This document shows positions 54,968-55,087 of a stretch of DNA of 61,450 nt, piece after piece (the first letter of the stretch is position 1; every line of letters starts with the position of its first letter). Position numbers and translations under genes: made by a program. The stretch is from a virus (lineage: Duplodnaviria; Caudoviricetes), in the IMG/VR virus record IMGVR_UViG_3300028767_000022, positions 1 to 61,450 of that record; one strand, 5' to 3'. The notes under the pieces were generated by a model that saw only the letters and a program-made list of their open reading frames with translations, was not told the DNA's origin and did not search any database.

Positions 54968-54981
54968 GTGTTTTATTAGCG

Positions 54982-55084
54982 CTCTCATGGTGGGGCTCAA
55001 ACCCACAACTTCCAGGTACCTAATTTGCATTAGGCTCTTTAAATTACTTAGCCTGGTCCGCTATTCAGTTGCGGCACATGAGAG
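54982..55084 (-). ncRNA. tRNA-like RNA with a 35-nt expanded anticodon loop, nested in the tmRNA intervening segment
   Basis: CTCTCATG/CATGAGAG acceptor, CCGC/GCGG D-stem, CCAGG/CCTGG stem, GTGGG-TTTGAGC-CCCAC T-arm. Confidence 0.8.
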
Positions 55085-55087
55085 TTT

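Follow-up and report, generated by a model that had tools for sequence, protein, structure and literature searches.

A tRNA-shaped module with an interrupted anticodon loop occupies the spacer of a divergent permuted tmRNA in a crAss-like phage

The 61,450-bp IMG/VR virus record IMGVR_UViG_3300028767_000022 (the whole stretch analyzed here, called the window below; approximately 35% G+C) is a contig of a crAss-like phage. On its minus strand lies a divergent, circularly permuted transfer-messenger RNA (tmRNA) gene, the spacer of which holds a module derived from a tRNA. The module retains its acceptor stem, D-arm, T-arm, and tertiary core intact; an insert of 28 to 35 nucleotides (nt) ending in a GCAA-capped hairpin replaces or interrupts its anticodon loop. 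Read along the minus strand, the order is acceptor piece (CCA at 55090-55088), 120-nt spacer (55087-54968), and coding piece (G1 at 54967), with the letters ...GGGACCUCGAAAGCCCCACCUCCACCA, 120 nt, GGGGGUGCAAAG....

The acceptor piece starts with the P2 strand GGTCTGTTAGGCTGTAT (55131-55147), which by eye looks like the family-invariant TGACTGTTAGGTCTAT of gut crAss-like tmRNAs. It ends in a tRNA-like domain (55088-55114) that comprises the T-arm GGGAC-CUCGAAA-G.CCC and, at 55098-55088, the acceptor 3′ strand CACCUCC, the discriminator A, and an encoded CCA. G1 to G7 of the coding piece (GGGGGUG) pair with CACCUCC, including a G3:U70 pair, and A73 and the encoded CCA follow. The 5′ part of the coding piece (54854-54967) contains the resume context AUAACUGGCA (54910-54901) and a tag frame running from GGC to UAA (54904-54854), from which ARAGORN at -ps80 predicted the 16 residues GTKTIQINNYVGLMSA*. 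The Rfam model RF04321 (tmRNA_permuted) aligned end to end over 55147-54854 (model positions 1 to 213), beginning at the P2 strand and accommodating the 120-nt intervening segment (54968-55087) as one long loop insertion; the score was 31.6 bits (E = 5e-4 when 2.6 kb was searched), below the gathering score of 47. ARAGORN reported no tmRNA at its default threshold and a permuted tmRNA at c[54763,55182], with the tag given above, at -ps80. The resume 10-mer ATAACTGGCA is present in 2 copies in the window versus 0.09 expected, and the copy that opens the predicted tag lies 58 nt from G1, compared to 54 nt in the gut phage cr114_1.

The neighborhood of the tmRNA is also informative. A gene for a 444-amino-acid (aa) protein (58325-56991, minus strand) had two tblastn matches in the phage collection, namely, cr114_1 and cr125_1 (Suoliviridae), at 27 to 29% identity. 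In both of these phages, a RefSeq tmRNA is located ∼3.2 kb downstream of the homologous gene on the same strand and precedes a sigma factor gene. In the window, the 444-aa gene, the tmRNA, and a sigma factor follow one another in this order on one strand, the last of these being identified at 51232-50636 (minus strand) by a Pfam scan of the neighborhood. A blastn search of 54600-55300 against phages gave no match. On the strength of structure, synteny, and resume context rather than sequence similarity, we call the window tmRNA a divergent member of the crAss-like permuted tmRNAs.

The nested cloverleaf (103 nt, 55084-54982) lies wholly inside the spacer, on the same strand as the tmRNA, and begins 3 nt after the tmRNA CCA, the intervening letters being AAA (55087-55085). 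Its acceptor stem has 8 bp, formed by CTCTCATG (55084-55077) and CATGAGAG (54989-54982), or alternatively 7 bp plus C-1:G73. The D-arm, CCGC-AACTGAATA-GCGG (55074-55058), has a 4-bp stem and a 9-nt loop, and the anticodon stem, CCAGG/CCTGG (55056-55052 and 55016-55012), has 5 bp. The T-arm, GTGGG-TTTGAGC-CCCAC (55006-54990), has a 5-bp stem and a 7-nt loop, and the variable loop is 5 nt long. The 35-nt anticodon "loop" (55017-55051), of which ARAGORN takes 28 nt as an intron, consists of 17 unpaired nt, a clean 6-bp, GNRA-capped hairpin CCUAAU-GCAA-AUUAGG (55034-55019), and 2 nt. The nested RNA has no encoded CCA, and a 14-nt trailer, CGCUAAUAAAACAC (54981-54968), separates it from G1. Every one of the 22 stem pairs is Watson-Crick, and the G+C content of the body is 54.7%, compared to 35% for the genome. 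Judged by eye in the ARAGORN register, with the numbering of the 9-nt D-loop assumed, the tertiary positions U8, A14, A15:U48, G18:U55, U54:A58, G53:C61, and C13:G22:G46 are kept, and A19:U56 stands in place of G19:C56, so that the elbow pair is preserved through a double change.

An earlier note on this DNA had described a cloverleaf filling the spacer, with an 8-bp acceptor stem, a D-arm, a T-arm, a start 3 nt after the CCA, and a 35-nt insert carrying CCTAAT-GCAA-ATTAGG, and each of these features was reproduced. RNAfold returned the cloverleaf as both the minimum free energy and the centroid structure of the 120-nt spacer, with an energy of -35.1 kcal/mol (z = -2.77); of 200 shuffled spacers, only 1 was as stable. 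When ARAGORN was run on the whole window in intron mode (-i60, default threshold), three genes were reported, of which two are Rfam-supported tRNAs and the third is the nested element, called at c[54981,55083] as a tRNA-Leu(aag) containing an intron of 28 nt. When the 61,450-nt window was shuffled 40 times with its dinucleotide composition preserved, the same search had 0 hits. These controls bear on the explanation that the cloverleaf is a chance fold or that the flanking tmRNA call is false, in which case nothing is nested. The tmRNA does fall short of the Rfam gathering score and of the ARAGORN default, RF04321 yields sub-threshold hits in control genomes as well, and the nhmmer profiles of the gut family miss the locus. 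However, a chance origin fits poorly with the two shuffling results, with a perfect acceptor stem that includes G3:U70 and is followed by CCA, with the matching resume context, and with the syntenic gene order, and we consider it extremely improbable. The surrounding tmRNA is real, though weak by standard tools.

The nested element has the 7/4/5/5-bp stems, the 5-nt variable loop, and the 7-nt T-loop of a canonical tRNA. What it lacks is an anticodon loop of 7 nt that has U33 and a purine at position 37; the encoded loop is 35 nt long, and the loop left by the 28-nt excision of ARAGORN is CUAAGUA, with an A34 anticodon and U37. The nested RNA as encoded cannot decode. Among 476 unique phage tRNA bodies compared, the closest were Leu(tag) and Arg(tct), with only 48 to 50 identical positions of ∼75; a tRNA-Arg body, as proposed in the earlier note, may be one possibility, and ARAGORN reads the anticodon as AAG.

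The excision predicted by ARAGORN raises the possibility of a genuine decoding tRNA with a short intron, in which removal of the 28-nt insert would give a 75-nt tRNA-Leu-AAG that shares the tmRNA transcript. The intron model fits at the default threshold, and canonical, apparently functional tRNAs occur in the same slot elsewhere (see below). A second tRNA of the window (56504-56601, minus strand), which has a canonical body and scores 43.2 bits with RF00005, also carries a 31-nt insert in the anticodon loop and, because of this second case, the phage or its host perhaps copes with such inserts, although this is only a hint. Against a decoding tRNA, a group I intron would need more than the 28 to 35 nt available, and searches of 54300-56900 and 54960-55100 at E ≤ 10 matched no intron family. 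No bulge-helix-bulge motif was seen by eye in the fold, for which no dedicated search was run, and the spliced loop would combine U37 with an A34 anticodon, both of which are unusual. The element also has no RF00005 match, and the Pfam scan of the 10 neighboring proteins found no RNA ligase or splicing endonuclease. Bacteria are not known to have a splicing route for short tRNA introns outside group I. Since no such route is known to us and neither a ribozyme or intron match nor a splicing enzyme among the 10 neighbors was found, a non-decoding tRNA-shaped RNA is favored, and we regard the intron-bearing tRNA as decidedly unlikely. In the tRNA at 56504-56601, the 31 nt that stand in place of the 7-nt anticodon loop include the hairpin CCGU-UUUA-ACGG; a loop with U33 cannot be obtained by any simple excision, and ARAGORN forces a Val(gac) call with a 5-nt intron.

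The earlier note had suggested a survey of what occupies the spacer at homologous loci. An invariant-motif scan combined with GenBank hits yielded at least 124 loci in the gut family, and the spacer was delimited in 118. The gut-family tmRNAs are called permuted by ARAGORN at its default, carry tags such as GNFYVTDYTRIAA, and have GGC as the resume codon within ATAACTGGCA, which lies 54 nt from G1. The 118 spacers among the loci listed comprise 47 unique sequences of 24 to 604 nt, which fall into 16 classes without common 11-mers. One class is a canonical tRNA-His(gtg), found with identical spacers at three of the loci listed; at one of these, cr114_1 (L220), the Rfam search placed a tRNA-His of 63.1 bits within a tmRNA_permuted hit of 50.9 bits. 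The tmRNA of cr125_1, which is 85.6% identical to that of cr114_1, has a different insert at the same spot, and two further loci share only a 75-nt hairpin that is neither a tRNA nor the cr125_1 insert. Another class, of ∼600 nt at nine of the loci listed (including cr56_1 and cr113_1), contains a coding sequence annotated as "endonuclease" on the opposite strand (L228:509-1090 and L229:509-1090, also L227). Three shorter derivatives of this spacer, of 130 and 215 nt, have sequences that suggest deletion remnants of the endonuclease insert. The survey thus turned up cargo that includes a tRNA-His and an endonuclease gene, and most of the spacers are without a tRNA. Spacer content is labile between near-identical tmRNAs, in which a tRNA can be present or absent, and is divided among 16 unrelated classes; therefore, it cannot record the origin of the permutation, and the suggestion in the earlier note that the element preserves such a record is not supported. 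The cargo is thus secondary as well as labile.

Some spacers form a minihelix of acceptor stem and T-arm right after the tmRNA 3′ end, e.g., CCACU-AA-GUUCG-UUCGACU-CGAAC-C-AGUGG (L221:11290-11320, the 92-nt class at 29 of the loci listed, and L094). These minihelices may be tRNA remnants or RNase P handles.

Other viral tmRNAs were searched with two patterns. A scan for CACCTCCACCA and GGGGGTG separated by 100 to 130 nt matched at least 120 loci (at least 122 instances). At one of these loci (L085), ARAGORN at its default finds a tRNA-Arg(tct) in a 106-nt spacer, wrapped by a 10-bp closing stem; the tmRNA itself is missed by ARAGORN and scores 96.8 bits with the Rfam model alpha_tmRNA and 89.3 bits with tmRNA_permuted. 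The second scan, which required a canonical T-loop between CTCCACCA and GGGGNTG, yielded 100 stretches, with 21 ARAGORN-default tmRNAs among the matches listed, one of which (L167) has a nested tRNA, the rest being tRNA arrays or plain tmRNAs. The L167 tRNA (57.7 bits, inside a tmRNA_permuted hit of 83.6 bits) has a long variable arm and the anticodon UAU; it follows the CCA with 0 nt between them and ends with a discriminator A and the 4 nt CCUU before G1. Since the scans for nested tRNAs required an encoded CCA and a canonical T-loop, these counts are lower bounds. Ten further loci and others like them were rejected as tRNA arrays or odd tRNAs rather than tmRNA spacers. Taken together with the gut family, these sequences show that the spacers of related and unrelated phage permuted tmRNAs are hypervariable cargo sites, sometimes occupied by canonical tRNA genes. 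The premise of the earlier note that the intervening segment is normally a discarded spacer consequently needs amending for phages, where spacers often carry cargo.

At 13 permuted tmRNA loci, the spacer encodes a hydrophobic peptide of 27 to 33 aa. The micro-open reading frames (micro-ORFs) mostly have a Shine-Dalgarno-like motif, and the stop codon falls just before G1. The peptides are conserved across loci that differ in DNA (e.g., MDVKEVTIAIIIFIITLVLIWSLDFVLI versus MDAKEITISLIIILITLGLIWGLDFVLI), and this pattern suggests real micro-genes inside the tmRNA spacers.

Given the anatomy of the locus and the census of spacers, we favor, with a probability of roughly 0.6, the reading that a tRNA-derived module was captured in a cargo-tolerant spacer and that the RNase P cuts freeing the tmRNA pieces probably release it as well. 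Under this proposal, the whole unit would be transcribed as one precursor, and RNase P would recognize the stack of the nested acceptor stem and T-arm and cut on its 5′ side (55085|55084 or 55084|55083). The acceptor piece would then be left with its CCA and a 3- to 4-nt tail, AAA(C), for exonuclease trimming. RNase P would also cut at G1 (54968|54967), as for any tmRNA, and release the nested RNA with its 14-nt trailer, which 3′ tRNA-processing enzymes would remove before CCA is added. Two RNase P cuts would in this way resolve three RNAs. The tRNA at L167, which abuts the CCA, is the clearest natural case of this proposed two-cut logic. The idea in the earlier note of one precursor that gives two tmRNA pieces and a third RNA is the most economical reading, and three canonical tRNAs (L085, L167, and L220) occupy this slot in other viral permuted tmRNAs; it is put forward here conditionally. 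For the nested RNA itself, the likeliest role is that of a hitch-hiker, a tRNA-like RNA whose shape has been retained for one of two uses, as a handle for processing or as a stable RNA that does not decode. Most related tmRNAs lack a nested tRNA; therefore, the module is not required for tmRNA maturation in general and is cargo, at most a convenience.

Several results weigh against this reading. Among the gut-family loci listed, 115/118 have no tRNA in the spacer, and T-arm-like hairpins show no clear enrichment, occurring in 8 of 47 unique spacers versus a shuffle mean of 2.5 and maximum of 8. None of the 61 permuted tmRNAs called by ARAGORN at its default among the matches listed for the CACCTCCACCA scan has a spacer tRNA. 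RF00005 gave no match to the nested element at E ≤ 10 in 54300-56900 or 54960-55100, the criterion being 29 bits, and the other insert-bearing tRNA of the window still reaches 43.2 bits, which places the nested element far from the consensus tRNA. The surrounding tmRNA is below both the Rfam gathering score and the ARAGORN default, and it is missed by nhmmer profiles of the gut-family acceptor and coding pieces. No relative of the tmRNA or the cloverleaf was found in the searched collections, no RNA run is listed among the sequencing runs that contain the locus, and four peat runs gave only identical low-depth contigs with no variant.

The search for relatives covered several collections. The flanking proteins of 174, 223, and 444 aa, compared with viral contigs, revealed no relative of the locus, and DNA patterns of the locus had 0 hits in viral contigs and 0 in metagenome contigs. 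Two pattern matches in genome contigs proved to be ordinary coding-looking DNA without a tmRNA and were judged to be chance. Because no relative was found, there is no covariation and purifying selection was not demonstrated. The sequencing runs that contain the locus are 24 DNA runs, all of them peat metagenomes, the four peat runs above among them. In one peat run (X13), a contig matches only 55076-55098 (23 letters), which covers the CCA junction and the initial 9 nt of the cloverleaf, and 54869-54910, in the resume/tag region; the sequence between was not visible, and the contig was not used. Its unaligned end indicates a different T-arm, and it probably belongs to a relative.

These results also bear on the explanation that the module is a decaying tRNA pseudogene, i.e., that a tRNA landed in the spacer, its anticodon loop was later interrupted, and the remainder is neutral filler degraded with the spacer. 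Fast spacer turnover and the tolerance of unrelated filler, including the truncated endonuclease remnants of 130 and 215 nt, speak for such decay, and the anticodon loop is non-functional as encoded, the element does not match RF00005, and no conservation could be demonstrated. Decay is harder to reconcile with zero mismatches in 22 stem pairs (though the event could be recent), with the compensated tertiary pair A19:U56 in an AT-rich genome, and with an insert that ends in a clean 6-bp GNRA-capped hairpin. We consider a pseudogene unlikely and continue to favor a captured module, probably released by RNase P.

A broader possibility takes in two other elements of the window. Besides the nested RNA and the insert-bearing tRNA at 56504-56601, a degenerate four-way junction occurs in intergenic DNA at 58731-58832 (minus strand; z = -2.25). 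This junction has a 6-bp acceptor-like stem and the T-arm GAG-UUCGAAU-CUC and ends in AUAACUGGCA, the tmRNA resume 10-mer. Conceivably, the three elements belong to one class of tRNA-shaped RNAs that do not decode and whose anticodon arms have been rebuilt; these would serve as RNase P/Z punctuation in crAss-like phages and would remain as stable RNAs with a function of their own, e.g., as decoys for tRNA-targeting host enzymes; alternatively, the 28- to 35-nt inserts would represent an undescribed short tRNA intron in a bacterial virus. We regard this idea as a long shot.

The remaining features of the window concern its origin and the 3′ end of the tmRNA. The tail tubular protein (1083-2015) is 47% identical to its counterpart in the crAss-like phage cr50_1 and has matches in 109 phage records, mostly of crAss-like or Bacteroidota phages. 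Two adjacent ORFs on the plus strand, of 4754 aa (11368-25632) and 2820 aa (25654-34116), are of a size compatible with the crAss-like group; we take these sizes to be typical of crAss-like virion RNA polymerase or tail proteins. An additional RF04321 match at 11414-11523 (plus strand, 20.8 bits) lies inside the 4754-aa ORF and is taken as spurious, and a 70-aa ORF at 54918-55130 (plus strand), which overlaps the RNAs, is unsupported. No promoter or terminator was detected on the minus strand by a scan that does not include Bacteroidota promoters. A three-way junction near the 3′ end of the coding piece (54713-54766, minus strand) has z = -0.72, which is not significant alone, and the loop of its second hairpin, GCAG-CCUCGAGAA-CUGC, resembles a T-loop. 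In gut-family tmRNAs, the 3′ end consists of a T-arm or tRNA-like element followed by ACTACAA (e.g., L225:863-942 and L227 at ∼1303-1390), and the junction at 54713-54766, as modeled by folding, may act as a tRNA-like mark of the 3′ end that tRNA-processing enzymes would recognize. RefSeq labels the 3′ tRNA-like element of the cr60_1 tmRNA as a tRNA-Leu overlapping the tmRNA. In three gut crAss-like phages, a RAGATH-9 RNA immediately precedes the tmRNA (L220:11029-11196, L221:11047-11215, and L222:304-483), and Hatchet ribozymes (L220:6195-6320 and 9671-9799) and RAGATH-7 are found in the same region; none of the three reaches its gathering score in the window.

The spacers of permuted tmRNAs are usually treated as throw-away sequence, and in phages they are a recurrent cargo slot. 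Three independent lineages have canonical tRNAs as cargo, and a homing-type endonuclease gene and conserved hydrophobic micro-ORFs were found as well; the window adds a tRNA-shaped RNA unable to decode as encoded, a variant of a barely described arrangement. If nested tRNA shapes supply RNase P sites, they would offer a simple route to mature both tmRNA pieces and a natural test bed for end formation in two-piece tmRNAs. There are also consequences for annotation: tmRNA finders that reject hits overlapping a tRNA can miss such genes, and tRNA finders without an intron mode miss the nested element.

We found no description in the literature of cargo in the spacers of crAss-like tmRNAs. A tRNA in the spacer of a permuted tmRNA was found mentioned only in the 2025 tmRNA database paper (PMC11915505), whose supplements may list more. 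That paper describes permuted tmRNA transcripts as "cleaved by tRNA processing enzymes" and reports 1 intact tRNA-Ala in the intervening sequence among 11,946 permuted sequences, "a unique feature." This tRNA-Ala, in GCA-2688965__sp002688965.2, resembles the window element in lying wholly within the spacer of a permuted tmRNA. The tmRNA genes with group I introns described there (PMC11915505) are likewise similar in carrying removable cargo, sometimes with a homing endonuclease; those introns, however, lie in the T-loop and are self-splicing, whereas the window has spacer cargo in which no ribozyme was detected. Two-piece tmRNAs in marine phages are described in PMC9004378.

The closest comparison is with the permuted tmRNAs annotated by RefSeq in gut crAss-like phages (cr114_1, NC_055897.1; cr125_1, NC_055900.1; cr115_1; cr52_1; and cr60_1), which have the piece order of the window. 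They also share the Gly (GGC) resume codon in AUAACUGGCA and the neighborhood synteny, and the spacer is variable within the gut family. The window tmRNA differs in that it encodes CCA, has a different tag, and is too divergent for blastn or nhmmer, and its nested element is non-canonical, with a 35-nt anticodon loop, whereas that of cr114_1 is a 63-bit tRNA-His. The tRNAs at L085 and L167 are nested at the same position and on the same strand as the window element; unlike it, they reside in alphaproteobacterial or marine-type tmRNAs that score above the Rfam gathering score and have normal 7-nt anticodon loops. Further parallels are the tRNA punctuation of mitochondrial transcripts and mascRNA, which is cut from MALAT1 by RNase P and RNase Z. 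Those systems are eukaryotic or organellar. In them, a tRNA shape within a longer transcript directs the RNase P/Z cuts that define the ends of its neighbors, as the nested cloverleaf would under the processing proposed here.

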